From assembly GCA_032718475.1 (NCBI GenBank), contig JAUCBJ010001945.1:39434-103433 (forward strand): 64,000 nucleotides of DNA. The letters are read 5' to 3'. Each line of letters opens with the position of its first letter. Positions within the stretch are counted from its first letter, which is position 1. Positions 3,372 through 55,908 of the stretch are shown piece after piece. The notes beneath the pieces were generated by a model. It was not told the origin of the DNA and made no database searches. It worked only from the letters and a program-made list of their open reading frames with translations. This DNA is from Nemertoderma westbladi (Eukaryota > Animalia > Xenacoelomorpha). A program made the position numbers and the translations under genes.

Positions 3372-3504
3372 GCCGAGCTTTAAGGTACAATACACATCGC
3401 TGTGGCAACCACCCTCCGTGAACACAGATTAAGATTCAGTGGGCACTGCTGGAGAAGTAAAGACGAGGTCATACCAGATCTACTTTTCTGGCAACCAACC
3501 CATG
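3372..3504 (+). mobile_element. RTE LINE 3' fragment, left half (target of the BEL/Pao insertion)
   Basis: Near-identical to about 48288-48417 of the longer LINE; continues at 18301. Confidence 0.9.
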
Positions 3505-4760
3505 TGTAAAAGCTTCTGTGGGATATAACTGGCCCCTTTTGCTTCGCAATCCAGTTTCCCCCCAGGCGCTGGAATACTCTAAAAAGGTTCTCTAACTGTA
3601 CATATATTCCCCTCGCCCGCAAGGTACCGTTACAGGTGTTTTAACGGACATAAAAGTCATTCTGCTATATACGTGTTTTGGCGGACATGGTAAGGCAAAA
3701 ATCCTGCAATGCACCAACTACCTTTCACAGCTTAGCCGTGATGATTCATATTACGACATCTAACAGCTGGTTGCTGACATGGAAACAGCCATTGGACGCA
3801 TGGTTCTTTGTTTGGCTTGAGCCAATCAGAGCGATTTTTCCTGTCGACGTGTAGCTTTTCGGCCGATCATAAGGAGAGTGTTCAGTCTTACTGTTTTCAC
3901 TTGATACTTTGTTGTTATTGCTGTCTAAGCCAGAAACACCGGCTCTAGAGTTAATTCTTTTCATACTTTAAGAAGAAACATTAGTAGGCTTAAATTATAG
4001 AGCGTATGACTGTTATCAGTCAAATCCATTCACAATTCAATACTTTGTTGTTATTACTGTTCAACATACATTATTATACTGCTATTTACTGTTGTGTTTG
4101 GTTGAATATTATTTGGAGAACATATATAAAGAACCCAAATTTCCCAATTTTCTTGATACACTACAGGTTAGAGAGACGGGTTATATATAGCGATTGCGAC
4201 TTATATTGTTGTGGTTTGTAGTGAATTTAATGCTATTTGATAAGCACTACATTGGTCCGTTGCTATTCCCTTTATATATGATAAAATACATTGACGGGCG
4301 GCAAATTAGTGAGCAGTATTGTGTGTTACCGGTAGTGTGCATGATTGTGACCGATAACTAAGCATTTCCTAAAGAATGCGCCTCATACGTGAATCTTAAG
4401 CCTTACCGACTTACCGTTGTGATTAGTATAAGTCATATCTCTGTTTACTTAGATAGAGCGCCACGTCCTAAAAGGAACTGTTAATATTTCCCGAAAGTGA
4501 ATAATATTAGTCAGAAATTAATTATTAATGATCAATCGAATAATACAATACCGTAAGCTTCACTGCAATAATAATCTAAGCCGACAGAATCCAGTCTCCC
4601 GGGATTATCCAGCGGGTGAATGGACGCGCACTAGGCTGGCTTCTGCTAATGTTGTGTTTATTGGTATTAAATATTGTCATCTTCTAGAGTCGATTTATAA
4701 ACCAAAAGACATATAAATTTTGGCAGGTTAAACTGCTAAAGGTCTTCAAAAGCGCGTACA
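3505..4760 (+). repeat. 5' LTR of BEL/Pao element
   Basis: Direct repeat of 17040-18295; only one substitution noticed by eye (3618 C vs 17153 T); CCAAT boxes near 3790 and 3822. Confidence 0.95.
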
Positions 4761-4771
4761 ATAACAGTCAT
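4761..4771 (+). promoter_or_regulatory. Non-tRNA primer-binding site ATAACAGTCAT, complementary to LTR 4006-4016
   Basis: Abuts the LTR end, lacks TGG, exact reverse complement of ATGACTGTTAT in the LTR. Confidence 0.6.
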
Positions 4772-4825
4772 TGACTTTATTGCAGTAAGCAATAAAGTTG
4801 AAAGTACCGATCGACTGGTAAACCT

Positions 4826-4955
4826 GAACCGGTACTTCTGTAGGTCAGTAGGCCCAACTGCCAGAACCGGTACTGCTGTAGGTCAGTAGGTCCAACTGCC
4901 AGAACCGGCACTTCTGTAGGTCCGTAGGCCCAACTGCCCTAACCGGTACTTCCAG
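4826..4955. repeat. 38-bp tandem repeat in BEL leader (ccggtacttctgtaggtcagtaggcccaactgccagaa)
   Basis: About 3.5 copies. Confidence 0.8.
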
Positions 4956-5109
4956 TATAAGTACATTAGTATTATTCGATTTTGATTATAGTATACCGGT
5001 AGGTCTTAGTATTTAATCAGGGAACGGCCGCCCTGATTTTTATTTGAGATTCTACTTATTTCTGTCGGTTTTATTTACTAGTAGGCTAATATTGAGCAGA
5101 AGGCGTGTG

Positions 5110-5705
5110 ACCCTGCTCAGATTGTTCAGATAATTGTAGGCTGAGCTGCTGTCTGACTGTTGTTGGGTTTGGAGAGATTACGGCGTGTGTGGAGTTTGTC
5201 TGATAAAGTGCTGTTAGTAAGTTGGGGCAGCCATATGCTGCAAGGTCAATCCCCTCTTAAAGAATAAGTCGTACTACCGTGTTAGAACGCATACTAACTA
5301 ACTATTTCAGAATCTGCATATACTGTAGTTTATTTAGGCTTGATCGTAGTCTGCCAGCGTTTTGGCCTGTGTTTGTTTGTGTGGTCTGTTCAGGTACCGT
5401 AATAGTTATTACTCAGATATTTTGTAGGCTGGATTGTTGTCTAGCTATTATTAGGTCTGAAGAGATTGCTGCGTGTGTAGAGTTTGTCTGATAAAGCTCC
5501 GTTAGTAAGTTGGGCAGCCATAGCGGTAAGGTCAATCCCCTCTTAAAGAATAAGTCGTACTACCGTGTTAGAACGCATACTAACTAACTATTTCAGAATC
5601 TACACGTACGGTAGTTTATTTAGGCTTGGTGGTAGTCTGCCAGCGTTTTGGTTTGTATTTGTTTGAGTATTCTGTACGGGTAGCGTAATATTTATTATTC
5701 AGAGT
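5110..5705. repeat. About 288-bp tandem duplication in BEL leader
   Basis: ggtcaatcccctcttaaagaataagtcgtactaccgtgttagaacgc occurs at about 5243 and 5530. Confidence 0.8.
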
Positions 5706-7026
5706 TTATGCGATTATTCGCAACATTCATGTCCCCAAGTTTATTCCTACAGTAATTGTGTTTGTTATACATACCGTTATAGTTAAATTAACCCCGGTAC
5801 TACACGGGCTGCTTGGCGTAGGTAAAGACTGGTGACTTTGTGCTTCGGTCACTCCAGCAGATGCCGTGGTTCTTTTAACTGTTCAAGTATATCTAACTAC
5901 TGATTATTTGTTGTACCGGTACTTGTACCTAATTTAGGGTTTAGTGTACAGTGCTTTCCGAAGTAATTAGTGTGTAGGCAGTATATTTGTGTTGTAAAGT
6001 GGTTAATAGGCACGCTGGATCTGGTAGTCCGCGGTAATTAACTTCTAGGTAGGAACAATCCGTGATACATAACGTAGTACCTATAGCGATACGGTTATAG
6101 GTCGTCAGGCGGTGGTATTTTCCTATCTGGACAACGCAGTGTATTTACTACTACTTATTATTTTCAAATACCGTAGTACCCTGTCCGTTGTAATAACCAG
6201 GATTCTAACCCTTTGTTAGGCTGGTTTGTAGACTTCCTGTAAAATTACCCTAAAAATCTCGTACGTAATATTTTTGTTGTGTTTAACTAGAGATTTAATC
6301 TCACCCGTATCGTAAGTAATTTGTAGTATTAAGTAACTTAGGTAAATTAGAATTATCAGTTTTAGTGTCAAATAAATAGCACTTCACTGAGAGCGCACAG
6401 CTTCTGTGTAGTGACTCCCCCAGAAATAATAACATTTATTTCAAATATTGACAAAACCCTTTTAAACGGGTATATAAATATTATAAATCAACTCAAACGA
6501 TTTATAAATAGTAGGCCTGCCATACAACAACTAGGTCTCAATATCAGTTGGACTGCTGCTTAAATAACGGTAATAAAGTATGTTTAAGTAACCAAGTAAC
6601 CCTAAAATATTCAGAAATTCAATTATTCTAAAATAATTGACATACCGGTATTTACCATAGGCTTATTATATTTATTTCTATAAATTTGAGCTGAAATCAT
6701 ACCGGTATTCTGTAATTAATTCTAGTAATAATTATACTTATATATACTATAAGTGTCAGCTGTATACCGGTATTCACGATAGGCCTATTATATATTTATA
6801 TATATTTGTGCTAAAATTATATACCGGTACTCTGTGACAAATCTAGTCTGTAATAATACTTATATATATATATTATAAGCATACCGGTATTCTAATATAT
6901 TATATATATATCACGCTACACTGAGAAGCAGTATCGGTAATTAATTATTAGGCTAACAGTGATACTGAATTACTAGACTTGCTTTAACTGTAATATAGCA
7001 GTAGGCATTCGACTGTACAATCAAAC

Positions 7027-8238
7027 ATGGCTGACACAAGGCAAACTCTGTCAGATAGTCTCCTAGAAACAACAGCCTGTTTCTCGGATCAAAGTGTAGA
7101 GAATCCCAGACCGAGGTCTGAAACCCCTCATACTGTAAGAAGGGCAACCCCTGCAGTGGTTGTGACAGAACCTAGGTTGGTAGAAAAGATTTCGCAATTT
7201 GCGAAGTTAGTGAAGCGCCGTTGGTCTGCCATAGGCACTCGGGCCCAAGTCAAGCGGGATCAAGAAGAAGCTATAAAACAGCAGCAACCTCCTAGCCAAG
7301 AACCTGGTTCACAGCGGTCCGATAGCTCCAGTAGTTCGGATACTGTTGAGCGGACGCCAGAACGCGGAGCGAAGATGGCGGATACGGTTTATGATGGGCG
7401 GCCAGCCTGTGGGGAATCAACCGACGCCACTTCTTCTCAAGTGGAAAGTGAGGTGGAAAGCGAAGTGGAAAGTGAGGTGGAAAGCGAAGTGGAAAGCGAG
7501 GTGGAAAGCGAAGTGGAAAGCGAATTAACATCAGCAGAGAAGCCGCGAACTAGAGACGCTATCGACATTTATTTGTCCGACTATCAGCGATTCCTAGGAG
7601 ACGAAGAGTTGAGGAGACGGCTGTCTGGACTTTCCCCTAATAGTGAAGGAACCAAGCTTGTGTTGGACGCAATCGATGCCGAAATGTTAGCTGCAAACCA
7701 AGCTGAATGTGATGAAAAACTCCGCCTCATTAGAGTCCGAGAAGAACAAATAAAGAAAAGAAAGATAGAGGAACAAAGGGCGGCGGCTATGGCAGAAGCA
7801 GAAGTAGAAAGAAAGGCAGCGGCGGCAGATGCAAAGGCAGCGGCGGCAGATGCAAAAGCAGCAAAGGCAGTGGCAGAAGCAGAACGGAGAGCCGCTGAGC
7901 AGACTACCCAACTGGAGTTGGAAAATCTGCAAGAGACACAAGACAGTATAAATAAACAGTTTACTGCTAATCAAATGCAGATGATGAGAAAATCTACTCC
8001 CAAGCGCCAGGGATACACATCCTCGGAGGAAGGCGAGACCACCGATCCTGAAGGCGGAGGAAATAGATCTCATCTAAGTAGGCGTAGAAAAACATCTTAC
8101 CGTCGCAAATTGCCTGATTTGCCCCCAGCTGTTAAAAGACAGCTAACTAGCACAGACTTAGGTAGTGCAGAACCCATAGAACAATTTATCCAGGTCAAAA
8201 GGCTCCCTACAGATGCAGGAGACTGTCCACCAACTTAA
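7027..8238 (+). CDS. N-terminal coiled-coil/low-complexity part of BEL Gag (403 aa)
   Basis: (VESE)n and Ala/Lys/Glu-rich helix; overlaps the next ORF and is fused to it by removing one A at 8197-8200. Confidence 0.7.
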   Translation: MADTRQTLSDSLLETTACFSDQSVENPRPRSETPHTVRRATPAVVVTEPRLVEKISQFAKLVKRRWSAIGTRAQVKRDQEEAIKQQQPPSQEPGSQRSDSSSSSDTVERTPERGAKMADTVYDGRPACGESTDATSSQVESEVESEVESEVESEVESEVESEVESELTSAEKPRTRDAIDIYLSDYQRFLGDEELRRRLSGLSPNSEGTKLVLDAIDAEMLAANQAECDEKLRLIRVREEQIKKRKIEEQRAAAMAEAEVERKAAAADAKAAAADAKAAKAVAEAERRAAEQTTQLELENLQETQDSINKQFTANQMQMMRKSTPKRQGYTSSEEGETTDPEGGGNRSHLSRRRKTSYRRKLPDLPPAVKRQLTSTDLGSAEPIEQFIQVKRLPTDAGDCPPT

Positions 8239-10888
8239 GGGAACAGTGAGGGAAGGTAGAGCAGAGTTGCAAGAAGTGCAGCAAAGTATCGCACTAGAAC
8301 GCGATAAATTAGTCAATATACAAAAGGGCATACCAATACCCCCTGTAACATTGTGTCAACCTGTTAGGTCTGAAGTATTACATGCGCAAGGTGTGGAGCC
8401 TACACGCATCTATACTGCTAGTGAAGTTGAAACTCCTATAGCAAACCCTATTAAGGGTGATTATAGACCTGTTATTAATGATATTCCCTATAGACCTGAT
8501 AATGATCCGAGAACTTTATATACCGATAATTCGATATTAAATAACACGATGGCCCAAGAAAGCTTTACGCGTCAGATGGCTAGAACAGAAGCCCGCCAAG
8601 CGGTCAAAGTGGGAGAGATCGTCAAATTCAATGGAGATGAGATGAAATGGTTACCTTTCAACGAATATTACAAAGATAGCATACAGAACTCTGTACTATC
8701 TAACGGAGAGAAACTTAGATTCCTCATCAAGTGCTTGGAAGGACCTCCCAAGTTAATGGCGTTAAAGTTTATTGGACATCCAGATGGATTAAGACAAGTT
8801 TGGGATACATTAAACATCAGGTATGGTAACAAGGATAACATAGCTAAGTATTTGTATGCAAAATTAGTAGCCCCCCGACACTTCCTTAGTAGCGGGATTA
8901 TAGAGTTTTCCGATGAAATTCAAGAGATCTGTAGACAACTGGACTGGTTAGGTAAGTCGCATGAATATCAGAGTTCCATGGTCATTGGAGCCGTAGTCTC
9001 TACTTTACCAAAGGGTGGAGTATGTACGCGCTGGGACAAGAAAGTGTTGTACATGAATGAACAACAACGACGAAGTCCTACCATGGCTGATCTCATGTCT
9101 TTCTTAGATAGTGAAGTAAAATTACAACTCATAAGGCAGTCCCGAGAGAAAACATCGGAAAATAAGGTAAGTGAGAAACCCGTTTCTAGGAGAAGGATAA
9201 TACCAGTGTGTTATACTGACGACGGCGAAAGCCAAGCTTCTCAAGAAGAGGACAGCGGGAAAGACACAGCAAAATCTTACTATGACAACAAGACCTATAA
9301 AGACGTAAGTAACTACAAGTCTCGAACCAGTGACAGGAGAGAACAGGTAACAACAACTCCTCCTACGTCTCCTAAGATAATTCACGGAAGAAAGCCCGAA
9401 GAAAGAACGAGAGTGCAGAACGTTAACCAAGTTAAGGTGAGTAACATCAAACCAAAATGTGCGCTGTGCGACGGGCCCCACCGTTTGAGTGCGTGTGCAG
9501 AATTCCTAAAGAAATCCCTGGCAGATAGACGTGGAGTCCTGTGGGATAAGCGGTTATGTTATAACTGTCTCAGACGCGGACACCAGCGGCGAACCTGTTA
9601 CTCTGACGCAAGGTGTGCTAAGTGCGGCGCGAAACATCATAGCTTGTTGCACACGGAATTCGAACGAAACAGCCCGAGTCAGGTAAGTGAGCCCAAATCA
9701 CATGTCCAATTCAGTGATGTGAACGACACTGACCAAAGTTCTGAGTGGGAAGGATTCTATACGGACGAATTCTCCGATGCCAACGAATCCTGTTATCTAA
9801 TAAATACCGCAGTGTATCGAGCACTTACGTACGAAAAAGACACCGACACGGAGTTCCCCCCAACCACCTTTGACAAACAACCATCTTGGAAAGCTCCAGC
9901 TTCCAACGTAGGAATCAGAGAATTTCCTGTAGTTCAAGTAAGAGTTCACGGTCTTAACAAAAGCTACATAGTGAACGCCCTCCTTGACTCCGGCAGCACA
10001 GGAACATTCATCGATCAAGAACTGGCCGAAGATATCTTTGCTGGACAACCCAAGTTCCGGACTAAATTGAATATGTCAGGAATTATGCAGGTTTGGAAAT
10101 CTACCCTAACGGCAGATTACTATGTAGGTGTGTTGTCCACCACCCAGGATAAGTTAGGAACACAAGGTATAAGGTCAGTAAAAATGGTGGCTATAAAGAA
10201 CTTTGCTACTACTCAAGCAGAACCTTATAACTGGGACGAGGACGAGTGCATCCAACATCTTGAGATACCTCGATTCCAGACAGATTATCCTGGAGTGCAA
10301 ATACTCATCGGCCAAAACGCGCATGAGGCGCTCGAGACATTGGAGAAACGGCCTGCTCAACCGCAGCCATTACAAACCTATGCGGTAAGAACTAGAGTAG
10401 GTTGGTACTTCACTGGCCCTTCCCGTAGAACGCTCAAAGAGAGATTACCTCAACAACAGGTATACAAAGTAAAGGAATGGGAAGTGGAGAGCAGTGATGT
10501 GGACGATCCAACTGAGGGAACACCATACTCCTCAGATAATGACGATATTAACTCCAATGTAGATCTATGGAGACATTGCCTTGGGACGATTAATCCAGCC
10601 GACATTGCTTCCAGAGGAGCAACTCCTCAAGAAATGATAGATACTCCAGGCTGGTTAGGTGGATCCGACTTCTTAAGTAAAGAAGAAGAATGGCCTCCTC
10701 ATCTTACCACGGCTGAGATTAGACAGGCCAAGGGAGCGGAGAAAGTAACACAACAACTCAATCGCCCAGCTAGTCGTTTATGTTTACTGGAAAGAGACCG
10801 AAAACTGTCCGGAAACTATGGAAGGCAAGATACTCTTCCTACGACTACTTCCCTAATCCGACAAATATCTAGGGACTCCATAACGTGA
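8213..10888 (+). CDS. BEL/Pao Gag-protease with remnants of the RNase H and integrase C-termini
   Basis: DUF1759-like capsid (KFNGD..W..F...EKLRFL..CLEG); CX2CX3HX4C, CX2CX4HX4C and CX2CX3HX4H knuckles; ALLDSGS; WRH..G..NPADIASRG..W.GG..FL...WP; RP.SRLCLLE; no RT or DDE core. Confidence 0.9.
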   Translation: MQETVHQLKGTVREGRAELQEVQQSIALERDKLVNIQKGIPIPPVTLCQPVRSEVLHAQGVEPTRIYTASEVETPIANPIKGDYRPVINDIPYRPDNDPRTLYTDNSILNNTMAQESFTRQMARTEARQAVKVGEIVKFNGDEMKWLPFNEYYKDSIQNSVLSNGEKLRFLIKCLEGPPKLMALKFIGHPDGLRQVWDTLNIRYGNKDNIAKYLYAKLVAPRHFLSSGIIEFSDEIQEICRQLDWLGKSHEYQSSMVIGAVVSTLPKGGVCTRWDKKVLYMNEQQRRSPTMADLMSFLDSEVKLQLIRQSREKTSENKVSEKPVSRRRIIPVCYTDDGESQASQEEDSGKDTAKSYYDNKTYKDVSNYKSRTSDRREQVTTTPPTSPKIIHGRKPEERTRVQNVNQVKVSNIKPKCALCDGPHRLSACAEFLKKSLADRRGVLWDKRLCYNCLRRGHQRRTCYSDARCAKCGAKHHSLLHTEFERNSPSQVSEPKSHVQFSDVNDTDQSSEWEGFYTDEFSDANESCYLINTAVYRALTYEKDTDTEFPPTTFDKQPSWKAPASNVGIREFPVVQVRVHGLNKSYIVNALLDSGSTGTFIDQELAEDIFAGQPKFRTKLNMSGIMQVWKSTLTADYYVGVLSTTQDKLGTQGIRSVKMVAIKNFATTQAEPYNWDEDECIQHLEIPRFQTDYPGVQILIGQNAHEALETLEKRPAQPQPLQTYAVRTRVGWYFTGPSRRTLKERLPQQQVYKVKEWEVESSDVDDPTEGTPYSSDNDDINSNVDLWRHCLGTINPADIASRGATPQEMIDTPGWLGGSDFLSKEEEWPPHLTTAEIRQAKGAEKVTQQLNRPASRLCLLERDRKLSGNYGRQDTLPTTTSLIRQISRDSIT

Positions 10889-10960
10889 TAGCATGTGGAG
10901 TGGGCGTGTGACTACATTATTTTATATTTGTTTTTATTTTATATTTATGTATGTATTATT

Positions 10961-12444
10961 ATCAGGAACCGAGAGGTTCATTACTGTAAGAATTGTTGGC
11001 TGATTGACTGGCTGACTGGCTAATCTATAGTCAAAACTACTCTAACGATTTTGATGAAATTTTCACAGCGGCTGGATACCGCGATTCTAAGGTCCCTGGT
11101 ATGTTCCGCTATTTCGTCCATGAGCCGTGGGCTCGAAAAATAGACATAAACGAAAAAACGCCATAGGCGCAATGGTAAAATAACACCAATAACAGCTGGT
11201 GTCGTGATGAAAAATGGCTTATGTAATGGATTTCTACACAAGGCTTAGTATAAATCGATGAGGTTGCCAAGATTATTGTACTCAGTACACCCATACTGTT
11301 TGTTTAGGCCCTAGGACACTCTGTCAAAGCAAATATTAACTGGTTGGTTTAGTTTGAAATCTATTATCGCCTCAGCTGAATTACTCTTCCCAATGCATTC
11401 TATGCGAATATCTCACTCTGCTAATGTAAGCTGAATGACGGTTTAGTACACAGTGTGTTGGCTACATTAATGCCAACATTATTGCAAAATGTTTTATTGT
11501 TGGATTACTCTCTGTCAGTCTCCCCTTCAGAACATTGTATAGGGAATTTACTTTAGTTTACTCTACTGTGCATTCAGCTGAATGGATTTGAGCGATTGCC
11601 AAGTACAGAGTTGGATCATTCTCTGACCATAGGCAAAGACAAATCTTTTTAAAAATATACTTTTTAATGTTTTTTTTTCTGACCAAAAATTTCAAAAAAA
11701 TTTTTTCGTAGTCATTACTGCCAATCGATTCGCCATCAAAAATAACGTAAAAAATTTTTTTTGCAAAATTTTAAATTACTGTAAATTTTTGGCGACTGGG
11801 GGGGGTCAATTTTTTTTGATCCGCTATAACTCCGGAACGCTTTGTCCAAATTCGATGGGGTTTTCATTTTTCAACTTAATTCGATGTCCTCTTTCAGCCT
11901 ATCCATGTTTCGAAACCCCAAACAGCGCCGTTCAAAAATTAATTTTTTCTAGTTCTAGAATTTTACAAATTTCAAAAAAGTTGCAGTATTTTATTAACGC
12001 CTTTACGGAATTCGATAGCGTTTTCGATTTTTATATTAAACGCAATATCCTGAATCTCACTAGCCTAGTTTCGCGTCACCAATGCCAAGATTTCATACTT
12101 TTTGAGGAAAATTTTTCTAGAATAATTTTTATTTAATTACATTTATCGCGATTTCTTATTACTGATTGCACATGAATTGATGGAGTTTTCAATTTATTAA
12201 CTAAACACGATATTGCGCATCGCACCAGCGTGGTTTCGAAATTCCAAAACGAGGTCTTCACTAGTTGCAGGTCGATTTTGTTCTAGAATTGAGCAACTAA
12301 TAATGGATCGAATTTATTAATAATTATTGTATGAAATATGATTGTATTTTTAGATAATTATTAGTTCTATACTAATTATCGTTGTCTCTTTTATTTAAAA
12401 TAAAAAGTCGGTTCCTTATCGGGCCGCTAGGCCCGTCACTAGTT
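10961..12444 (+). mobile_element. Helitron/DINE-1-like non-autonomous element inside the BEL element
   Basis: Sub-TIR aggaaccga (10964) / tcggttcct (12408); 3' hairpin cgggcc-gcta-ggcccg then CTAGT; core shared with 1836-2730. Confidence 0.65.
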
Positions 12445-14030
12445 AGGAACCGAAGGTTACTTTCTGTAAGAATTTGATGTAATAGTAATAGTAATAGTAA
12501 TAATAGTAATATTTTGAAGCGAAATAACATAAAAACGGCTCTAACGATTTTGTTAAAATTTTGCATAACGCAATGTTTTGATGACCACTATCGTTTCCCG
12601 CTGGTCCCATGTCTGTCCATAGAATGTGGGCTCGAAAAATAGTCATAAACGAAAAAACGCCATAGGCGCAATGATAAAACACCAGCTGGAGCGCATGAAA
12701 AATGTATAGAGGGCCTAGTGATTCTATTCAATAGAGAAAGGGCCAACTAACAAGGATGTACTTTCTGTGCCAAGTTTTTAGTTAATCACTCACTCTTTCA
12801 ACCCAGACTATAAGCAAACATTAACTTGGTTAGTAATGTACTATTATCCCATCAGCTGAATAACTCTTCCCCGTGCTTCCTAAGGGAATATCTACAAGGT
12901 GGTGGTGGGTTGTGGGTCAGCGGAATGAATTTTAGTTACACACATAGTGCTGGTTACCGTTAATGGTACTATACTCAGCTAATAATAAAATAATAATTGA
13001 TGTATTTAATAATCCGAGAGGGAGGTGAGTTAATGACTTGCTTGGCAAACATTAATTATATTAATCTGTCAAACCAGAGGGAATACAGAGTGGGATCTAC
13101 AGTACCTGTCTCTGTATAACTTTTTACCCAGCTGATAGCTCCTTTAATCCAACACAAACTGTTGCCCTGGATTCAATGAATGCGAATGTCTATTACAGTA
13201 GGTTCCTGGGAAAAGCTGGCCACCTGAATGACTTTTTAGTTATAGAGTAGTGTACATGAGTGAGGCCTAACTCTTTCAGCGAACAATTATAATTATACTA
13301 TGGCTAGTTATATATTCTGACTTTGGCTTCCGACACACACATACACTGAAACCTACACCTAAGTTCGCTGGTTATTCGCAGTTCTGACTCGCCATATATG
13401 AACCTAACTGTAGGGTACTATTGATAAACTATACTAGTTGCAATGTTCAATTAAAATCAGAGTTTGGAGGTCTAATTATGTTTTGGCAACATTAATACTA
13501 TGAGTGGTGTTTGGTATTATATATAATTTTGATGTAGACAGGATATGTTGCCCTAACTGCTTTAATAATTACTAGGAACAGATTTTGAGATATATGAGTT
13601 TCTTTTCCCTAAATTGAGAATTTAACATTGAGGCGGGATATTAATTTGCCAAGGTGGGTTTTGCGTCCACTTCCCACCCTGTCTCCTTTGTTCACTACCT
13701 TGGTGCAATTTTTTATTATAAATGCTGAACATACGTGCAAATTACAGTATTAGTATAGGTAGTGCTGGCTGATACTGGGTGCTCATATTTGCAACCATTT
13801 GTAACAAATTGTAACCAGGGACATCAATTCGTGACAAGGTGCTCATATTTTTAACCAAACACAATGATTCGTAATGCGGAAATACAGATTTGTAACCAGG
13901 CGCTCAGATTCGAAACTGGTTTAGAGATGATATCCTGAAAAAAATAGTTAGCGGCTTATGGCTGGTAAAAATATTAGTTTCGGTTTGGTTTAACTTCGGT
14001 TCCTTCACGGCGTCTCGACGCCGTCTTTAA
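12445..14030 (+). mobile_element. Second, tandem Helitron/DINE-1-like element
   Basis: aggaaccgaa (12445) / ttcggttcct (13995); (tagtaa)n microsatellite; hairpin acggcgtc-tc-gacgccgt; shares gggctcgaaaaatag.cataaacgaaaaaacgccataggcgcaatg with the previous copy. Confidence 0.65.
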
Positions 14031-15512
14031 TGTAATGTTATTATAATCATTTTTATTCAATTTTATTTAGTAGAATGTTATTTTAGTGATTATTTAGTAG
14101 ATTAGTGCAATATATTAGTGTTTATTACGTACGTAATTACTTATAATATACATTTAGTGCGACGGCGAGAAAATAATTATTTTTCTCTTTCCTTACTGTC
14201 CGTATCATATTATAAATACGTGACTACAGTAAGATGAAATGTCCGTACTTATGTCCGATTTTTATGAAATAATAAATAAAATAAAATTAAAGTACAATAA
14301 GGCCACTACTATATTCAAGTATTATTGGTAGGCAGAGTGTTGGGAATGCAAAGTTCAGATCCTCGTGTCTCGGCTAAACCAAGCTCTGGGTAGACCTTGG
14401 AAACGACTTGCCTCTTCACACTGACATTGCTTCGTGCGATATTGCTCTTCTACCTTATATTAAATAATACATATAGTAGCGTGATGTCCCTATAACAGTA
14501 GCGTAAAACGCAAATAAATTTGTTAAACTTTTGACCATCTGTAATTCTAGTCGATTAAGATATCGCGGCACCCACCGATATACTTGAAAGACAAATTCTA
14601 GAATCAGTGGTTAACGTCCCCAGACAAGATCTGGAATAAATCGGTGCCCATCTTAAATATTAATTTAATATTTATTAAAATCTGTAAAATTCAGATCCGT
14701 TAACAATTCTAGTCGATTAAGATATCGTAGCACTTACCGATACTCTTAAAAGACAAATTTCATAGAATTAAGGATCCTATGTCCCCAGACCTGCTCTGGA
14801 ATCAAATTGTGTCAATTTTAACATCAAATAATAAAATTCACGGGAATAAATTTAAATTCATATTTTAAATAAATTTCATAAATTGTCATTTTGTACAATT
14901 TATAACATTCCCAAAATTCCATTAATTAATAGATCATGGGAGCGGAGATTCATCCTATTGAGTGTATTAGAGTGCGAGAATCTCCAACATATAGTCAATA
15001 GCCGATAAAATTAATAAAATCATGCATAAAGAGGATATTGACAATTAAAGAATTATTATTAAATAGCATCCCAGATCTGTATGCATGAGAATTACCCTAA
15101 TTCTACCGCTAGCATTCCATAATGTCACCATAGCAACACCCACGCTAGAATTAGAGGCAAGTTAAAAGAGTTAAAAGTAAAAAGTACAATTGGTGACAGT
15201 TGTGTGGAATTTGTGCGTTTGTAGGTGAATGTTACTGCTAAGGTGTGTTTACAGTAGCTAGTCGCAATTGTGAAAGTAACCCAACTCTCCTATAGAAAGA
15301 ACCTAAAGTGGATTCAAGCCTTTGGGACGGACAGTGGAGTGACTTGTGCCGGTTGTCGTTGTCGTACTGTTGCTACATGTTGGCGTAAACACCGCGACAA
15401 CGGTACATCGGCGCTGAGGATCCCACTGTCCGGGGGCAAAGAGAGGTAGGCAGCGACGTCCGCTCGCCTAAACATAAACTCATTTCGATATTAACAAACT
15501 CAGATAGCAGAT

Positions 15513-15911
15513 ATGACGGAGTTGATAGAAGATGATCTTGGTATCAAGGAGCGATATACTCTACCTTTGCAAGCATTTGTGGATAGCTTAATACGCGGTG
15601 AAGCCGATCCAACCATTACGGAGGACGATGGTCGTTATATCGAACCGCCGATGTCCCAAGAGCAACTTGCGCGTGAATTGGACTATCGAAAATCCACCGC
15701 GCGCTATACGCATCGTAATAGTACGTATATGGACTTCCTAACTACCGGCCATCCTATCGATTTACCTGATACGGACGATGTAGACACCGAAAGGGAAATG
15801 GTTCTATTTAAATATCATACCCAGCGGAGTCGTAACGATAAACCGAGAATAGATCACGAAAATTCTATTCGTAACAGACTGGGAAGACGAACCAATATGC
15901 CTAGAATCTGA
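15513..15911 (+). CDS. Accessory ORF of the BEL element, N-terminal part, unknown function
   Basis: 132-aa ATG ORF with coding-like composition; same frame as 16068-16961. Confidence 0.5.
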   Translation: MTELIEDDLGIKERYTLPLQAFVDSLIRGEADPTITEDDGRYIEPPMSQEQLARELDYRKSTARYTHRNSTYMDFLTTGHPIDLPDTDDVDTEREMVLFKYHTQRSRNDKPRIDHENSIRNRLGRRTNMPRI

Positions 15912-16067
15912 GGAGATTCAGCCTAGCGCGCCCGGAACAGCGACAACGATTACATCCTAGAATGGTATCAAGGTCCACAGTGTCTCACTGCGTACGATTA
16001 TCGCCATGCCAACTATGTTTCTCGGCAACGTTGTCGGTTATGCGCATCGAGAGACCATGTTACGCCC

Positions 16068-16961
16068 ATGGACACAAACGTCCGCTGTTCCTATTTCCAC
16101 GAACAACCGGCGATGGAAATTTATTGCGCGTATTGCAGATTTAATAATTTGCATATTTTTGCGGTTTGCCCTCAATTTATGACTCAATGTCACCATTGTC
16201 AACTAAAGGGACACGCCAGTTTCGATTGCCCTTTTAATCACGATTTGAAAAGCGTAGATGAAATGATCACACTACGTTACATCAGAGCTTGGGAAGCGAA
16301 CGCTAATTTACATTGTGATTCGCGCCATCGTTATTATCCTGGACGCGCTTACGAAGGAATTTATGCGTTCCATCCTTATCTATTCGCTTCTGTCGAACAG
16401 AAATCACGCATATCGAGTTACGAACTACTGAAGCGCGTCGGAGAATGTATTTCAACTAAATTCGTACGCAAATTTCTCAGGAGTGTTAATCCTAGCGACC
16501 TTCATTCCTATAACTTAATCAATTATATCCGTCAGGATCCGGACTATGGAGACTTGTTTGTTAACTCACACCCCGAGTTACAGGAAGTACATCGACGGCC
16601 TTACGAATACCGAGCCCGCGAACGCGAGTTGGAAAGGACCATTAAACCCCGGAGGTTTCTAACTGCCTATGGTCCATCCACGGCCCTCGTTCAGACCACT
16701 CGTAAAGGACCCGTAAGAGCGGCTGTCTTGAAACGAGCTCTCAAAGCCGTTAGACCCCTCTCCCCGGACGTTGATGTCAATCAACCCGGTACTTCGACTG
16801 GCGGATACACCGACCATAATCCTACACCCTCTGATGCAATCATATTGCACCCTTCACCCGGGGGTTATAGCCCTCCTTGTAAAGTGGCTCGCCCCAAAGA
16901 GAAAAGGACTCTGGCTAGCTTTAAAAAACTGCGTAAACGCCGTCCGCGCAAGAAAGACTAA
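16068..16961 (+). CDS. Accessory zinc-knuckle protein with basic C-terminal NLS-like tail
   Basis: CAYCRFNNLHIFAVC and CHHCQLKGHASFDC; frame is open upstream to 15927 with CRLCASRDH; ends KKLRKRRPRKKD just before the 3' LTR. Confidence 0.65.
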   Translation: MDTNVRCSYFHEQPAMEIYCAYCRFNNLHIFAVCPQFMTQCHHCQLKGHASFDCPFNHDLKSVDEMITLRYIRAWEANANLHCDSRHRYYPGRAYEGIYAFHPYLFASVEQKSRISSYELLKRVGECISTKFVRKFLRSVNPSDLHSYNLINYIRQDPDYGDLFVNSHPELQEVHRRPYEYRARERELERTIKPRRFLTAYGPSTALVQTTRKGPVRAAVLKRALKAVRPLSPDVDVNQPGTSTGGYTDHNPTPSDAIILHPSPGGYSPPCKVARPKEKRTLASFKKLRKRRPRKKD

Positions 16962-17039
16962 CTGTTTAGAGTATTTACGTATATTAGAAACTGTGATTTT
17001 GTATATTTTATAGACTCAAATCCCATTTTCTGGGAGCGG

Positions 17040-18295
17040 TGTAAAAGCTTCTGTGGGATATAACTGGCCCCTTTTGCTTCGCAATCCAGTTTCCCCCCAG
17101 GCGCTGGAATACTCTAAAAAGGTTCTCTAACTGTACATATATTCCCCTCGCCTGCAAGGTACCGTTACAGGTGTTTTAACGGACATAAAAGTCATTCTGC
17201 TATATACGTGTTTTGGCGGACATGGTAAGGCAAAAATCCTGCAATGCACCAACTACCTTTCACAGCTTAGCCGTGATGATTCATATTACGACATCTAACA
17301 GCTGGTTGCTGACATGGAAACAGCCATTGGACGCATGGTTCTTTGTTTGGCTTGAGCCAATCAGAGCGATTTTTCCTGTCGACGTGTAGCTTTTCGGCCG
17401 ATCATAAGGAGAGTGTTCAGTCTTACTGTTTTCACTTGATACTTTGTTGTTATTGCTGTCTAAGCCAGAAACACCGGCTCTAGAGTTAATTCTTTTCATA
17501 CTTTAAGAAGAAACATTAGTAGGCTTAAATTATAGAGCGTATGACTGTTATCAGTCAAATCCATTCACAATTCAATACTTTGTTGTTATTACTGTTCAAC
17601 ATACATTATTATACTGCTATTTACTGTTGTGTTTGGTTGAATATTATTTGGAGAACATATATAAAGAACCCAAATTTCCCAATTTTCTTGATACACTACA
17701 GGTTAGAGAGACGGGTTATATATAGCGATTGCGACTTATATTGTTGTGGTTTGTAGTGAATTTAATGCTATTTGATAAGCACTACATTGGTCCGTTGCTA
17801 TTCCCTTTATATATGATAAAATACATTGACGGGCGGCAAATTAGTGAGCAGTATTGTGTGTTACCGGTAGTGTGCATGATTGTGACCGATAACTAAGCAT
17901 TTCCTAAAGAATGCGCCTCATACGTGAATCTTAAGCCTTACCGACTTACCGTTGTGATTAGTATAAGTCATATCTCTGTTTACTTAGATAGAGCGCCACG
18001 TCCTAAAAGGAACTGTTAATATTTCCCGAAAGTGAATAATATTAGTCAGAAATTAATTATTAATGATCAATCGAATAATACAATACCGTAAGCTTCACTG
18101 CAATAATAATCTAAGCCGACAGAATCCAGTCTCCCGGGATTATCCAGCGGGTGAATGGACGCGCACTAGGCTGGCTTCTGCTAATGTTGTGTTTATTGGT
18201 ATTAAATATTGTCATCTTCTAGAGTCGATTTATAAACCAAAAGACATATAAATTTTGGCAGGTTAAACTGCTAAAGGTCTTCAAAAGCGCGTACA
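17040..18295 (+). repeat. 3' LTR of BEL/Pao element
   Basis: Repeat of 3505-4760; preceded by a short purine-rich tract gggagcgg. Confidence 0.95.
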
Positions 18296-18300
18296 CCATG

Positions 18301-18468
18301 GAAAGCGTAGTCGTGGACGACCGGCTATACAGTAACATATATCGACCAGCTTGAAAGGGATATTGAACTTGGGAGAAACGAAATTGCGACAACTATGGAG
18401 AATCGGAAAGCCTGGAAGGATCTCATTTCCACTATCCGAGTTCGCTCACCTATAAATTAGTAGTAGTA
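18301..18468 (+). mobile_element. RTE LINE 3' fragment, right half, with (TAG)n tail
   Basis: Matches 48418-48572; ends tagtagtagta. Confidence 0.9.
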
Positions 18469-44748: not shown

Positions 44749-46700
44749 TATGGAAACCCATATGGACAATATATGCTAGCAGATACTAACCCATAGGGAC
44801 GGACAATATATGCTAGCAGATACTAACCCATAGGGACGGACAATATATGCTAGCAGATACTAACCCATAGGGACGGACAATATATGCTAGCAGATACTAA
44901 CCCTCTAACCCATATGGACAATATATGCTAGCAGATACTAACCCATAGGGACGGACAATATATGCTAGCAGATACTAACCCATATGGACAATATATGCTA
45001 GCAGATACTAACCCATAGGGACGGACAATATATGCTAGCAGATACTAACCCTCTAGGACAATATATGCTAGCAGATACTAACCCTCTAGGACAATATATG
45101 CTAGCAGATACTAACCCTCTAGGACAATATCAGCTAGCAGATACTAACCCTCTAGGACAATATCTGCTAGCAGATACTCACCCTCTAGGACAATATCTGC
45201 TAGCAGATACTAACCCATATGGACAATATATGCTAGCAGATACTAACCCATAGGGACGGACAATATATGCTAGCAGATACTCACCCTCTAGGACAATATC
45301 TGCTAGCAGATACTAACCCATATGGACAATATATGCTAGAAGATACTAACCCTCTAGGACAATATCTGCTAGCAGATACTAACCCTCTAGGACAATATCT
45401 GCTAGCAGATACTAACCCTCTAGGACAATATCTGCTAGCAGATACTAACCCTCTAGGACAATATCTGCTAGCAGATACTAACCCATATGGACAATATATG
45501 CTAGCAGATACTAACCCTCTAGGACAATATCTGCTAGCAGATACTAACCCTCTAGGACAATATCTGCTAGCAGATACTAACCCATATGGACAATATATGC
45601 TAGAAGATACTAACCCTCTAGGACAATATATGCTAGCAGATACTAACCCTCTAGGACAATATCTGCTAGCAGATACTAACCCATATGGACAATATATGCT
45701 AGAAGATACTAACCCTCTAGGACAATATATGCTAGCAGATACTAACCCTCTAGGACAATATCTGCTAGCAGATACTAACCCATATGGACAATATATGCTA
45801 GAAGATACTAACCCTCTAGGACAATATCTGCTAGCAGATACTAACCCTCTAGGACAATATGTGCTAGCAGATACTAACCCTCTAGGACAATATCTGCTAG
45901 CAGATACTAACCCTCTAGGACAATATCTGCTAGCAGATACTAACCCATATGGACAATATATGCTAGCAGATACTAACCCTCTAGGACAATATCTGCTAGC
46001 AGATACTAACCCTCTAGGACAATATCTGCTAGCAGATACTAACCCATAGGGACGGACAATATATGCTAGCAGATACTAACCCTCTAGGACAATATATGCT
46101 AGCAGATACTAACCCTCTAGGACAATATCTGCTAGCAGATACTAACCCTCTAGGACAATATATGCTAGCAGATACTAACCCTCTAGGACAATATCTGCTA
46201 GCAGATACTAACCCTCTAGGACAATATCTGCTAGCAGATACTAACCCATATGGACAATATATGCTAGAAGATATGCTAGAAGATACTAACCCTCTAGGAC
46301 AATATCTGCTAGCATATACTAACCCTCTAGGACAATATCTGCTAGCAGATACTAACCCATAGGGACGGACAATATATGCTAGCAGATACTAACCCATATG
46401 GACGGACAATATATGCTAGCAGATACTAACCCTCTAGGACAATATCTGCTAGCAGATACTAACCCATAGGGACGGAAAATATATGCTAGCAGATACTAAC
46501 CCTCTAGGACAATATCTGCTAGCAGATACTAACCCATATGGACAATATATGCTAGCAGATACTAACCCTCTAGGACAATATCTGCTAGCAGATACTAACC
46601 CTCTAGGACAATATCTGCTAGCAGATACTAACCCACTAGGACAATATATGTTAGCAGATACTAACCCTCTAGGGCAATATATGCTAACAGATACCTGCTA
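44749..46700. repeat. 33-bp satellite inside the LINE ORF (ctagcagatactaaccctctaggacaatatctg)
   Basis: About 58 units. Confidence 0.95.
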
Positions 46701-48566
46701 ACAGAAGATCTTACGATAGCCTACAAAGTTAAAACCGAACAACCAACAACCGAACACATTAACAAGGTTGAGACAGCTAAGGACGATCTTAAATTGGCCT
46801 ACAACATCAGCCAGGAAAAGTACATACAGGATAAAACTGAAGCAATTACAACTGCTCACATACAGCAACAATCAAGACTTACCTGGCAATCTGTAAATGA
46901 GGTATCTGGTCGGAAAAGTTGTGCAAAGGGGCGCCTCAGGGCCGATAGTCCTGAAGAACGTGTTGGGAAGTGGAAAAATCACTTCAGCAACTTGCTTGGG
47001 CAGCCACCAAACATCGATGTCAGCCCTACAAGGAAAATATATGACAAGACACTACCCATAGAAACAGGGGACTTCACACCTGCCGAACTCCAAAGAAGCA
47101 TTAAAAGCATGTCCAATAATAAAGCGAGTGGATTAGATGAAATCCCAGCGGAGGTATGGAAAACCGGAGTGCTAAACAGACCATTATTGAATGTTTGCAA
47201 CCGGATGTTAAAAGGGGAAAAGCCACCTCCAATTTGGACTAAAGGCCAACTAAAGCCTCTCCCCAAGAAAGGAGACATCGGCATACTAACAAACTATCGT
47301 GGGATCTGTCTGCTTGTGGTAGCTGCCAAAATATACAATAAAATGATTCTATATAGGATTAGGCCTCACATAGAGAAACTACTGCGTAAGAGCCAAAACG
47401 GATTTCGACCAAGTAGATCAACAATAGCTCAGATACTTGCACTACGGAGTCTGATTGAAGGAATTAAGTCAAAGAATCTCCCCGCAGTCATGACGTTTGT
47501 GGACTTCAAGAAGGCATTCGACTCCATCCATAGAGGTAAAATGCTTGAAATCCTAAGAGCTTATGGAATACCAGAAGTAATTGTTGCAGGCATTGGATTG
47601 TTATATTGTGACACAGAAGCGCAGGTACTCTCATCAGATGGTGAAACTGCGTTTTTCTCAATCCTGGCTGGCGTACTGCAAGGTGACACATTAGCACCAT
47701 TACTATTTGTAATTGTGCTGGATTACGCAATGAGGACGGCCACAAAGGGTGAAGATCTGGTATTCACACTTCAAGAACGCAGAAGTAGTACATATCCGGC
47801 AACTACAGTCACAGACACCGAATTCGCGGATGACATCGCCCTGCTCTCTAATACGCTAGCAGATGCACAGCTTCTACTAAATAAAGTGGAGAGGGCTGCT
47901 AAGGAGGTTGGATTGCATATAAATGCTACAAAGACCGAATTCATGACCTTTAATGTTGATGGAAACTTGACAACCATTGATAATAATCAACTAAGGAAGG
48001 TCGATGACTTCCAGTACCTTGGATCATGGATAGAGAGTAGCAAAAAGGACATAGAAATTAGGAAAGCAAAGGCTTGGGTAGCTCTATCAAAAATGGATAC
48101 CATCTGGAAATCAGATCTCTCCAGGCACCTGAAGACTAAGTTCTTTCGAGCCACAGTGGAAAGTGTATTTTTATACGGGGGTGAGACCTGGACACTGACT
48201 AAATCGCTTGAACAACGAATTGATGGTTGCTACACAAGACTACTAAGGGCAGCCCTAAACATCAGCTGGAGACAACACATGACAAACGCCGAGCTTTATG
48301 GTACAATACCACCTGTATCAACCACCCTCCGTGAACGCAGATTAAGATTCAGTGGGCACTGCTGGCGAAGTAAAGACGAGGTCATACCAGATCTACTTTT
48401 CTGGCAACCAACTCATGGAAAGCGTAGTCGTGGACGACCGGCCATAACACATATAGATCAACTTGAAAGGGATACTGAACTTGGGAGAAACGAAATTGCG
48501 ACAACTATGGAGAATCGGGAAGCCTGGAAGGATCTCATTTCTACTGTCCGAGTTCGCTCGACGTAG
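46701..48566 (+). CDS. RTE LINE reverse transcriptase (open frame downstream of the satellite)
   Basis: NYRGICL, QNGFR..RST, FVDFKKAFDS, GVLQGDTLAPLLF, EFADD and FQYLGS motifs. Confidence 0.9.
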   Translation, partial: TEDLTIAYKVKTEQPTTEHINKVETAKDDLKLAYNISQEKYIQDKTEAITTAHIQQQSRLTWQSVNEVSGRKSCAKGRLRADSPEERVGKWKNHFSNLLGQPPNIDVSPTRKIYDKTLPIETGDFTPAELQRSIKSMSNNKASGLDEIPAEVWKTGVLNRPLLNVCNRMLKGEKPPPIWTKGQLKPLPKKGDIGILTNYRGICLLVVAAKIYNKMILYRIRPHIEKLLRKSQNGFRPSRSTIAQILALRSLIEGIKSKNLPAVMTFVDFKKAFDSIHRGKMLEILRAYGIPEVIVAGIGLLYCDTEAQVLSSDGETAFFSILAGVLQGDTLAPLLFVIVLDYAMRTATKGEDLVFTLQERRSSTYPATTVTDTEFADDIALLSNTLADAQLLLNKVERAAKEVGLHINATKTEFMTFNVDGNLTTIDNNQLRKVDDFQYLGSWIESSKKDIEIRKAKAWVALSKMDTIWKSDLSRHLKTKFFRATVESVFLYGGETWTLTKSLEQRIDGCYTRLLRAALNISWRQHMTNAELYGTIPPVSTTLRERRLRFSGHCWRSKDEVIPDLLFWQPTHGKRSRGRPAITHIDQLERDTELGRNEIATTMENREAWKDLISTVRVRST

Positions 48567-51594: not shown

Positions 51595-51881
51595 TGTCGT
51601 AGCTTTAATAATGAATAAACACCATTCTAATATAACCATAGTCTTTATTATTACAAAAGCAGTTTTTATGTATAAAGCAACGGTAATTACTAAGTCTACA
51701 TTACTAAGTGTAATATAGTACAATACAGCAATGTAGTGTGTTACGCTAAGTAGGCTTCCTAGCCTACCGGTACTACACAGCAGTTCAGTATGTTGTTACA
51801 ATACCTAGCCTAATGCATTACAGCAGTATAGTCCAGTACAACATTTTAAATTTCCCTCTATAGTTTATAGTAATCTCCACA
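51595..51881 (-). repeat. Gypsy 3' LTR
   Basis: Two differences from 55909-56195 noticed. Confidence 0.95.
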
Positions 51882-51893
51882 TACTCCCCTCCC
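51882..51893 (-). promoter_or_regulatory. Polypurine tract GGGAGGGGAGTA
   Basis: Immediately upstream of the 3' LTR on the minus strand. Confidence 0.85.
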
Positions 51894-51913
51894 AAATAAA
51901 AGGCATGTACCGT

Positions 51914-54900
51914 CTAAGTTTTGAAATGTTTATAGATTGTCCCTTTGCGGGTAGTAGATGGAGACGACATCCCAACCACTACTGGTGATATGTCCTGGAT
52001 TTGGTCCTGGGTGTTATTCAAATCTGAATCCACCTCTCCAAGAAGGTCATTTTGAAAGTTATGAATTTCCTCTGACCTATCTTCCACAATAGACATTTCT
52101 TCTTGGTCAAATTCATTTCCAGAAATGCTGTTAGACCCACCCAAGATATTACTTTCAGTTTCCTCTCCTATTGGATTATATTGTTGTTGGGGTCCCCTCG
52201 ATAGTTTACGTACATTCACTGTATCAGACCAACCATCCCCATCATTAACACGCACAACGTAGTCAGATAGAATCTCCGTAATAAATACTTTAGCCACCTG
52301 CTGTAGCTTTCCCTTCTTGCAATAAACCATCGATCCCACTTGAATCCAGTTTGGTAGGTTACAGGCATTGAGCTTAACGTTTGTTGGTGCTGGGTTTGGA
52401 GCAATTGTGGATAATCGACTAAAACCCATAAATCTCTCATGTGGTGATGTCCCTGTGACACGGTTCTTCAGAGTACGTATATTGCCTAAAGCATTATCTA
52501 GTTCTGACTCCCACTGCATAATAGTCTTTCCAGCTTCTCTTAATCTCAACTTAATAGCTGACCAAATGATGCCATTATACCTCTCGCATTGGCCATTACC
52601 GGCTGGGTTATATGAAGTTGTTCTTGACTTTCTTGTATTCCATGAGCTTAAGAAATTACGAAATTTATCTGAAATCAGCTGTCTTCCTCTGTCCGAATGT
52701 ATAGATCTACATGGCCCAAACAAGTTGAACAATATGGTTAAGAACCTTTCCATAGTTTCCATTGTCACGTCTGGAACAGCAAAAGCAAAGGGAAACCTGG
52801 AGTATTCATCTACACAAACAAATAAATATTTATTTCGTGTTGCTGATGGTAAGGGACCCTTGAAGTCAATAGAGACTCTTTCCCATGGTGATGTAGACTG
52901 AATCACATTTCCTGGTGTTATTTGGGCAAAGTGAGGTTTTAACTCGCAACACAGCTCACACTCTCGACAGACATCCACACAATCTTGTTTCAGACCATCC
53001 CAACAGTGGTATCTTTTAATAAAATCATTCAAGCGATCAACTCCAGGATGACCTAGTCCTTTATGAACCTCTCTCACTAAAGTCGTATTATTATACTGCC
53101 CATTAGAATTTAAAAGATTCCCATTAAAAGCAGTACATCGACTTAATGCATCAGCAATGACATTTTGCTTTCCAGGGCGATATTGAATATCAAAGTTAAA
53201 CTCTGCAAGTTCTAAATGCCAGCGACACAGTTTATTATTCTTAATTTTGCTTTTGGGGCGTTCATCCATTAAATATGCTACACCTTCTTGGTCTGTGATT
53301 ACTTCAAATTTCCTTCCTACCAGGAAATGACGCAGTTTATCAATACAGTAATGCACTGCAAAAGCCTCTAGCTCAGGCGTGGACCAGTTTTTATCAACAG
53401 CAGTCAACTTGTGTGAAATGAAAGCCACAGGTTGACCATTTTGGGACAAGACACCACCTACAGCCAAACTCGAAGCATCTGTCTCTAGTACTAGGATATC
53501 TGTTGTATTGGGAATCAATAGCATCGCATCTTTCAGTTTGGATTTGAGTTCAACAATGGCTCGGACACCAGCTTCATTTAATGGAAACTTTGGTGAATTG
53601 CAAGTATCAAATAGAGGAATTGCAACAGTTGCAAAGTTTTCTATCCACTTGGAATAATAGACAAACATGCCCAGTAATGTTTCTAGTTCCTTCTTCGTTT
53701 GGGGAACTGCCATTTCCATTAGTCCAGCAAATCGATCAGGGTCAGGACTGATTCTTCCATTTTTAAAGATATGTCCAAGAAATCGCAGTTCGTTTTGTCG
53801 GATCAGACATTTCTCTTTCTTAAATCTGATACACTTCTCTCGAGCACGAGTTAGAAATTCAATCACACGAGAATCATGTTCTTCCTTTGTTTTCCCCCAT
53901 ACCGCCACATCATCTAACAATCCCGCACATCCCTCAATTCCCTCTATAACCGTCATAATTTCTCTTTGGAAAACAGCACTTCCATTTGTTACACCAAAAG
54001 GTAAACGAGTGTATTGATATAGGCGTCCGTTTGCTTCAAAGGCTGTATAAGGCCGTTCATTCTCTACAATGGGTAGCTGATGATAGGCTGAGCGAAGATC
54101 AAACCGTGAATAGAATATACCCTCTCTGATTTTATCCAATAGATCTGGAATGAGTGGTAGTGGGAAAGCATCAACTTCTGTAAACCGGTTTATAGTAGAG
54201 GCATAATCAATACAAACTAGAATCTTATCTCTCTCAGGAACCAACACACACTGAGATCTCCACGGGCTTGTTGATGGTTCAATGACACCTACATTTAAGA
54301 GTTTCTTAACTTCTAATTCAATTATGTGCTGGTCATCTTTGGATCTATAGCGCGATGGCATTCTTACTGGTTTTGTTTTTGGATCCATTCGTATAACGGA
54401 GACTGGTGGAATATTTAAACCAACAATTTTGTCATCAAACAAATCTTTAAATATTTCAAAGAGATCATCGTCAATATGCTTCTCAGAAGCAGAAATGCTA
54501 GACTTAGCAAATCCAGATACTGTTAAATTTCCAAGACTTCCTCCAAACTGTATATGTAGTTCATTAAACTGGTCCAATGCAGAGACACCCATAATTGCTG
54601 GATCAAATAAATTCTTGGCAATAAACAGATTAACCGGAACATAGCGACCATCTATTTCCAAAATCTCTGTAGTTTCTCCAACCAAGGTTAATGGCTTATC
54701 TCCAATATTTTTACAAAGTTCCGAATTCTTCAACCGTTTAAATGAAAGCCCCACTGATTGAGCTGTAGCTTCACTGACTACAGTAATGTCAGACCCTGGA
54801 TCAACTAACCACTGAATGAGCGAGTTATTTAACTTTGACTGTATAAATTTGCGATTACTAGAATATTTTTTGTTATCTTTCTCTTCTAGAGTTGCAACAC

Positions 54901-55869: not shown

Positions 55870-55892
55870 GTTGCAGTGCTCTTCTTAGATTA

Positions 55893-55907: not shown

Positions 55908-55908
55908 T

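Follow-up and report, generated by a model that had tools for sequence, protein, structure and literature searches.

Self-priming has been demonstrated experimentally for the yeast retrotransposon Tf1 and is predicted for its kin and for a few plant copia families. Tf1 and Tf2 of Schizosaccharomyces pombe, Tj1, Tosmo1-3 and the Tf1/sushi elements lack a tRNA primer-binding site (PBS); in them, the 11 nt that follow their LTR are complementary to the LTR itself. According to PMC7175516, bases 1–11 make up the Tf1 primer, and RNase H cuts between bases 11 and 12. The accessible text of PMC6317226 predicts self-priming for plant Tcn1 (gypsy) and for TAR/Houba/Osr-1 (copia) from a complement of at least 10 bp that starts 0–5 bp after the LTR, and self-priming is thus already predicted in two superfamilies. 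For the BEL/Pao elements, the ICTV profile of the Belpaoviridae (PMC8742986) lists a PBS of 18 nt for tRNA-Arg or tRNA-Gly, with LTRs of 0.2–1.2 kb and a genome of 4.2–10 kb, and their replication is poorly understood. Our literature search turned up no proposal of self-priming or of a splice-built primer in BEL/Pao; subscription journals, Repbase reports, GyDB and the original Levin and Poulter papers lay outside this search, and an earlier mention of BEL/Pao self-priming is possible. By term counts, PBS and tRNA are absent from the accessible main text of PMC3118150 and PMC554778 (supplements excluded).

The locus described here lies in a 64,000-nt stretch of Nemertoderma westbladi DNA, which we call the window and to which all coordinates refer. 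Positions 3505–18295 hold a 14.8-kb LTR element (Table 1). The end of its 5′ LTR is fixed in three ways, by the two LTR copies, by the CCATG duplication and by an uninterrupted copy of the host repeat at 48288–48559, and these bear out the first-pass annotation, which had ended the LTR at 4760 and seen a site without TGG after it. ORF2 matches DUF1759 at E 4.6e-12, its RNase H part corresponds to the last ~50 residues of BEL RNase H, and its gag, protease and RNase H tail can be aligned to BEL polyproteins by tblastn; homologues carry PF05380 and PF03564. The nearest proteins are ~30% identical, and no relative came up when metagenome contigs were searched with the protein of the element itself. 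Three BEL polyprotein queries gave no RT or integrase match within 3500–18300, and by the same queries the element is without a complete PR-RT-RH-IN pol. Because RT and integrase are absent, we file it as a deleted derivative and not as an autonomous member: it is a young, recently inserted, non-autonomous BEL/Pao derivative.

Several further features of the copy may be mentioned. Its long 5′ leader contains 38-nt tandem repeats and a duplicated block of ~290 nt (4823–5703), and the 344-aa 3′ ORF is Cys/His-rich, without a Pfam match and with zinc-knuckle leads below 0.9 in Atlas. The element is inserted within another repeat (3372–3504 plus 18296–18447, compared with 48288–48559), whose uninterrupted copy directly follows a LINE-like RT ORF (46665–48566). 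The empty insertion site is also visible in contigs of X1, one of the public runs.

Table 1. Features of the element and its candidate priming signals (window coordinates; a dot marks features without strand).
Feature	Position	Strand	Basis or remark
Left target-site duplication CCATG, 5 bp	3500..3504	.	uninterrupted host repeat at 48288-48559
5′ LTR, 1256 bp, TG...CA	3505..4760	+	LTR comparison
Two putative CCAAT boxes (3791 reverse, 3822 forward)	3791..3826	.	motif scan
Inr-like TCAGTC, candidate upstream transcription start ~3884	3882..3887	+	motif scan, inference
Candidate self-primer, uninterrupted (no intron)	4006..4016	+	overlaps donor-like GTATG at 4004
Stretch strongly variable between family copies	4018..4060	+	here a degenerate copy of 3882-3924
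LTR arm with predicted partner 4777-4790	4557..4571	+	folding; 14 Watson-Crick pairs, one bulge
LTR arm with predicted partner 4752-4757, 6 bp	4624..4629	+	folding; no better than shuffles
Candidate primer-binding site ATAACAGTCAT	4761..4771	+	offset 0 from LTR, without TGG
Predicted 10-bp local hairpin	4774..4798	+	folding; competes with 4557-4571 helix
ORF1, stop to stop, ATG at 7027	6994..8238	+	low-complexity, without Pfam match
ORF2: BEL-type gag (DUF1759, zinc knuckles), protease, RNase H tail	8180..10888	+	
Two extra 3′ ORFs, 138 and 344 aa	15495..16961	+	ORF list
Candidate PPT, short purine-rich tract GGGAGCGG	17032..17039	+	adjoins 3′ LTR
3′ LTR, 1256 bp	17040..18295	+	single mismatch vs 5′ LTR (at 3618); second primer copy 17541-17551
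Right copy of target-site duplication CCATG	18296..18300	.	sequence comparison

The element shares with the Belpaoviridae (Semotivirus: BEL, Pao, Tas, Suzu, Sinbad, Dan, Flow) its TG...CA LTRs, DUF1759 gag, protease and RNase H tail. Unlike them, this copy has no tRNA-type PBS, carries 1.26-kb LTRs, measures 14.8 kb and is without RT or integrase. What follows the LTR instead resembles the arrangement in the Tf1/sushi group, although those elements are Ty3/gypsy chromoviruses and the proteins encoded here are of the BEL type. Directly 3′ of the terminal CA stands ATAACAGTCAT, which occurs once, and each of the two LTRs contains its reverse complement. At offset 0, the match covers exactly 11 nt without extension; a sequence search thereby upheld the exact complementarity of 4761–4771 to LTR positions 4006–4016 that had been noted before. 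The element would thus be called self-priming by the published sequence test applied to the plant families (accessible text of PMC6317226), which belong to plant lineages and other superfamilies and for which that text describes no splice-built primer. The first-pass annotation also gave a Tf1 PBS beginning with ATAAC; these first five letters agree with the accessible part of PMC11042837 and begin the PBS of the window element too. The shared letters are probably coincidental, since none of the 12 self-complementary relatives described below has them.

A match of this length was reached by 0.00047 of 61,368 window positions and by 0.0009 of 12,239 internal positions. When the LTR was shuffled so as to keep its 2-, 3-, 4- or 5-mers, 4, 8, 11 and 11 of 4000 shuffles reached it at offset 0, and 7, 16, 28 and 21 of 4000 did so at offsets 0–5. 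The chance level is thus ~0.0005–0.007, which for a single element from a genome scan is suggestive, not decisive. No TGG adjoins the 5′ LTR end, the 64-kb window contains no tRNA gene, and Rfam gave no match at E <= 1 over 3400–7100. A TGG at ~4816 was rejected as a PBS, since 55 nt separate it from the LTR end and position 4816 differs in most copies.

The candidate primer of the window element is a contiguous 11-nt segment that is not split by an intron, the same state as in the relative L081. A splice-built primer was rejected here because the best joint, 10 nt long, would use GTTATC at 4012, a poor donor; in the single host intron that was read, the donor is canonical. An acceptor-like site stands at 4166, and no joint matching a 4004–4166 intron was found among those listed from public-run contigs. 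The contigs of X5, possibly an RNA run, have no cover over 3954–4121 and say nothing on expression or splicing.

We turned to related elements, a comparison that the first-pass annotation had proposed. An alignment of 22 BEL polyproteins yielded 80 metagenome loci (the best 80 of at least 583) and 36 loci from genome bins, and it had no match among viral contigs. The latter 36 BEL/Pao-encoding loci (L081–L116) sit in prokaryote genome bins and are most likely animal DNA. In 48 of the 116 loci the coding region is flanked on either side by a repeat, and from these we chose 17 by eye in which two LTR copies fix the 3′ end of the LTR. Ten of the 17, classed by TGG alone, have a TGG-starting site of the tRNA type, and none of the ten matches itself (best 4–6 nt, no joint of at least 9). 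All seven relatives without TGG pair with their own LTR, so that differing PBSs are each matched by the LTR beside them: five across a canonical GT-AG joint (L020, L026, L046, L051 and L083, over 12, 12, 15, 10 and 11 nt) and two contiguously. L081 has an 11-nt contiguous match with its LTR. L059 has one of the same length in its 3′ LTR, with an acceptor in the 5′ LTR at the same joint; it scored 5 nt when only the shared 180 bp were searched, and the 11-nt match comes from the search of the 3′ LTR. A single contig thus carries a 5′ LTR with the acceptor and a 3′ LTR that lacks the intron and is joined at the primer (139–327 and 6918), with the caveat that the LTRs are only 88% alike, the donor is off the contig and an assembly chimera is possible.

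Fourteen further loci, in which only the LTR start or a partial repeat is present, gave nine blanks and five joints (L005, L006, L013, L029 and L064); in these five the LTR ends were defined by the signature, and they are hence no independent tests. The paired segment lies at offset 0 in the window element and at 0–4 in the relatives. Donors are mostly GTAAG or GTGAG and introns 71–168 nt long, L083 being an exception with two possible donors and a longer intron. The part of the primer before the donor measures only 3–9 nt in the intron-bearing relatives, and L020 has a TCAGTC 22 nt before its donor. L031 is a tandem array of elements: its three LTR-PBS units follow one another at 6,138 nt and share an identical 168-nt LTR intron.

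Shuffled LTRs reached the observed match in 0–2 of 200 trials for the window element and ten relatives, compared with 33–176 of 200 for nine TGG controls (L046, L059 and L061 were omitted, as their 5′ LTR is cut short). The primer sites differ among the 12 self-complementary relatives, and every one is matched by the LTR of the same element. When leaders were compared with LTRs in a 20 x 20 matrix, the 11 self rows scored 10–12 on the diagonal; off it, a score of 10 was reached in 3 of 380 cells, two pairing the related L005 and L026 and one due to chance. That each non-TGG primer site matches only its own LTR supports tRNA-independent self-priming, and the sequences argue strongly for a clade-wide self-match signature in these BEL relatives.

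The two kinds of PBS also separate by descent. A tree of RT-RNase H with 84 rows (FastTree, midpoint root) divides into two clades, each with a support of 99. The 16-row clade holds all eight TGG elements present together with four rule-called ones, and the 68-row clade holds all 12 self-matching relatives, most of its 68 rows not being scorable for PBS. TGG and self-complementary sites therefore fall into separate clades. The window element, without RT, could be compared only on its gag-protease-RNase H tail, where it forms a long branch: it joined the TGG rows in one tree, a result flagged for long-branch joins, and was unplaced in a 29-row IQ-TREE run. Its top pairwise scores, 159–152, are with L081, L083, L031 and L029, compared with 118 for the best TGG row. 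A point against self-priming here is the distance from primer to LTR end, 744 nt in the window element versus 44–216 nt in ten relatives.

Contigs of the public runs reveal an abundant and varied family, whose summed depth is no copy number. Its copies agree through 4017, one base past the primer, and then diverge in three runs: the depth is 79,286 at 4012–4017 and then 13,296 and 2,440 in X1, 66,488 and then 11,241 and 2,063 in X3, and 241 and then 39 and 0 in X4. In X1 and X3 loose ends begin behind 4017, in X4 behind 4020; X5 contributed nothing to the profile. The best part of an alignment of 4016–4060 with 3882–3924, around the upstream Inr-like site, is identical at 20 of 21 positions, and by eye one X4 contig has 11 letters equal to 3881–3891 within the variable stretch. 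This stretch may be the footprint of template jumps onto the RNA 5′ end. Within the PBS, C4769T is the commonest variant among the matches listed (depth 54,594 of 74,814 in X1, 37,744 of 37,744 in X3 and 9.3 of 12.9 in X5, X6 being left out, with a share of 0.10, two contigs and no cover of 4769). Opposite G4008, the base of the window copy, it would form a G-U pair (-10.2 vs -12.4 kcal). The pairing kept in this way lends weak support to a primer helix, since 7 of the 11 transitions would keep pairing likewise. As read from its sequence, the T4769 variant is also an interrupted palindrome that could pair between two RNAs.

The predicted local fold of 4545–4810 contains both flanking helices and leaves the first five PBS bases open. 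The helix of 4557–4571 with 4777–4790 was reached by 0 of 150 and 2 of 60 shuffles, and the one on the U5 side, of 4624–4629 with 4752–4757, by 41 of 150. A predicted PBS-adjacent duplex between LTR and downstream sequence recalls the Tf1 'pretzel' as described in the accessible part of 10.1101/2022.12.06.519325. A general pretzel among the relatives was rejected: the flanking helix was reached by 10–56 of 60 shuffles in ten of them, none significant, and by 1 of 60 in one TGG-type control, so that such a helix is not diagnostic. The predicted primer helix itself scores 0.69–0.92 for RNAs starting at 3990–4006 and ending at 4775 or 4800, and 0.10–0.81 when they end at 4830; no primer helix was predicted for starts at 3884, 3930 or 3970. 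We regard such long-range folding, computed without pseudoknots, as weak evidence for the helix.

These predictions bear on where the transcript starts. The CCAAT boxes reported earlier at about 3790 and 3822 were recovered by the motif scan, but the AT-rich, TATA-like stretch reported with them has no TATA[AT]A match within 3672–4122. An Inr-like TCAGTC does stand beside the primer, as had been said, but its A falls at 4018, downstream of the primer. A second TCAGTC begins at 3882, ~60 nt after a CCAAT box. A transcript start at 4006, with the primer as its first 11 nt as in Tf1, is unproven: it is favored by the folding, which predicts the primer helix only for starts of 3990–4006, and it is disfavored by the upstream Inr-like site and by the few nucleotides of primer that precede the donor in relatives. 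The earlier reading is thus strengthened in its first half, self-priming, by the relatives' matches to their own LTRs, while evidence on its second half, the start at 4006, points both ways.

Could the site be primed by something other than the 5′ LTR? If a host RNA (a tRNA half, a tRNA fragment or another small RNA) primed at 4761–4771, the LTR match would be due to chance or structure. The last primer letters presumably resemble the tRNA-Asn anticodon loop over ~6–8 nt, the LTR contains five ACTGTT words, and the geometry of the window element makes it an outlier among its relatives. BEL/Pao elements are moreover described as tRNA-primed (PMC8742986), and half-tRNA priming is known in copia lineages (accessible text of PMC6317226). 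We nevertheless consider a host primer unlikely, given that the chance level given above holds even with 5-mer-preserving shuffles, that the differing PBSs of twelve relatives are each matched by their own LTR, and that the likeness among family copies stops one base after the match. Self-priming could also draw on the primer copy in the 3′ LTR (17541–17551) or on a second RNA, in which case transcription would begin near 4018, at the Inr-like site there; the RNA would then form a closed loop, and a template jump would have left the variable stretch after 4017 as its scar. The A of TCAGTC at 4018, the divergence of copies directly after 4017 and a long R-U5 that would need no fold-back all suit this arrangement. 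We think it improbable, however, as the primer of L083 ends 44 nt before the LTR end with AATAAA immediately after, which leaves little room for a downstream start, and as spliced primers combined with retained genomic introns would better fit a cap-proximal 5′ copy.

It is also conceivable that the pairing is regulatory, either masking the donor-like GTATG at 4004 or acting as a switch between hairpin and long-range helix, and that the real primer is another. The donor-like motif over the primer 5′ end and the acceptor-like site at 4166, the predicted competition between local hairpin and long-range helix, and the potential of the T4769 palindrome to pair between two RNAs are all compatible with such a role, but the paired segment lies exactly where minus-strand synthesis must start (offset 0; 0–4 in relatives) and no other primer is apparent, which makes a purely regulatory role very improbable. 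Self-priming of the window element in one form or another seems to us highly probable, and priming from its 5′ LTR is probably the form it takes.

Priming from the 5′ LTR would proceed as follows. The transcript would start at or upstream of 4006, and RNA bases 4006–4016 would fold back and anneal to the PBS. By analogy with Tf1, a cut just after 4016, probably made by a helper RNase H, would free a 3′ end, which a helper RT would extend across U5 and R to 4017; the nascent strand would then transfer to the 3′ LTR. Most relatives would assemble their primer by splicing, with the LTR intron taken out, and the primer spans a predicted splice joint that is not described for Tf1 in the sources as far as accessible. 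Because only 3–9 nt of primer precede the donor, the primer there probably lies inside a capped piece of greater length. For the intron to persist over generations, the 3′ LTR copy would have to stay unspliced: the cap-proximal 5′ copy would lose the intron, whereas the 3′ copy would retain it and so pass it on. Rare splicing of the 3′ copy could give rise to lineages with a ready-made, uninterrupted primer, such as L081, the 3′ LTR of L059 and the high-copy window family, and the uninterrupted primer of the window copy possibly stems from past copying of a spliced RNA. That a large and widespread BEL/Pao branch has dropped tRNA priming and relies on host splicing of an LTR intron to build its primer we would put at even odds.

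The surroundings of the element offer a second candidate. Host genes in 21875–58373 are intron-poor, with SAM50-like and MBOAT each in a single ORF, and IFT122 in the same region is split by a ~5-kb intron full of 33-nt repeats. On the minus strand at 51595–56195 lies a young Ty3/gypsy element with 287-bp LTRs (2 mismatches), a TATGG duplication and a long open pol. It has no TGG site; positions 55907–55893 are a 15-nt exact complement of LTR positions 55989–55975, and a match of even 11 nt was reached by 30 of 20,000 shuffles. Neither this element nor the 120 homologues listed out of 962 show a chromodomain family, which makes it a candidate for self-priming outside Tf1/sushi. The 15-nt self-match in this neighbor suggests that tRNA-free priming is common in animals.

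If our reading of the BEL/Pao elements is right, a third superfamily would self-prime, apparently across a deep clade, and most of the members read here would need a splice for their primer to exist at all; the window copy itself, defective and with an uninterrupted primer, would be a plain instance. The signature would also supply a rule for annotating BEL elements that have no recognizable PBS. Replication in this branch would then be tied to RNA processing, and host splicing would act as a checkpoint for retrotransposon replication.
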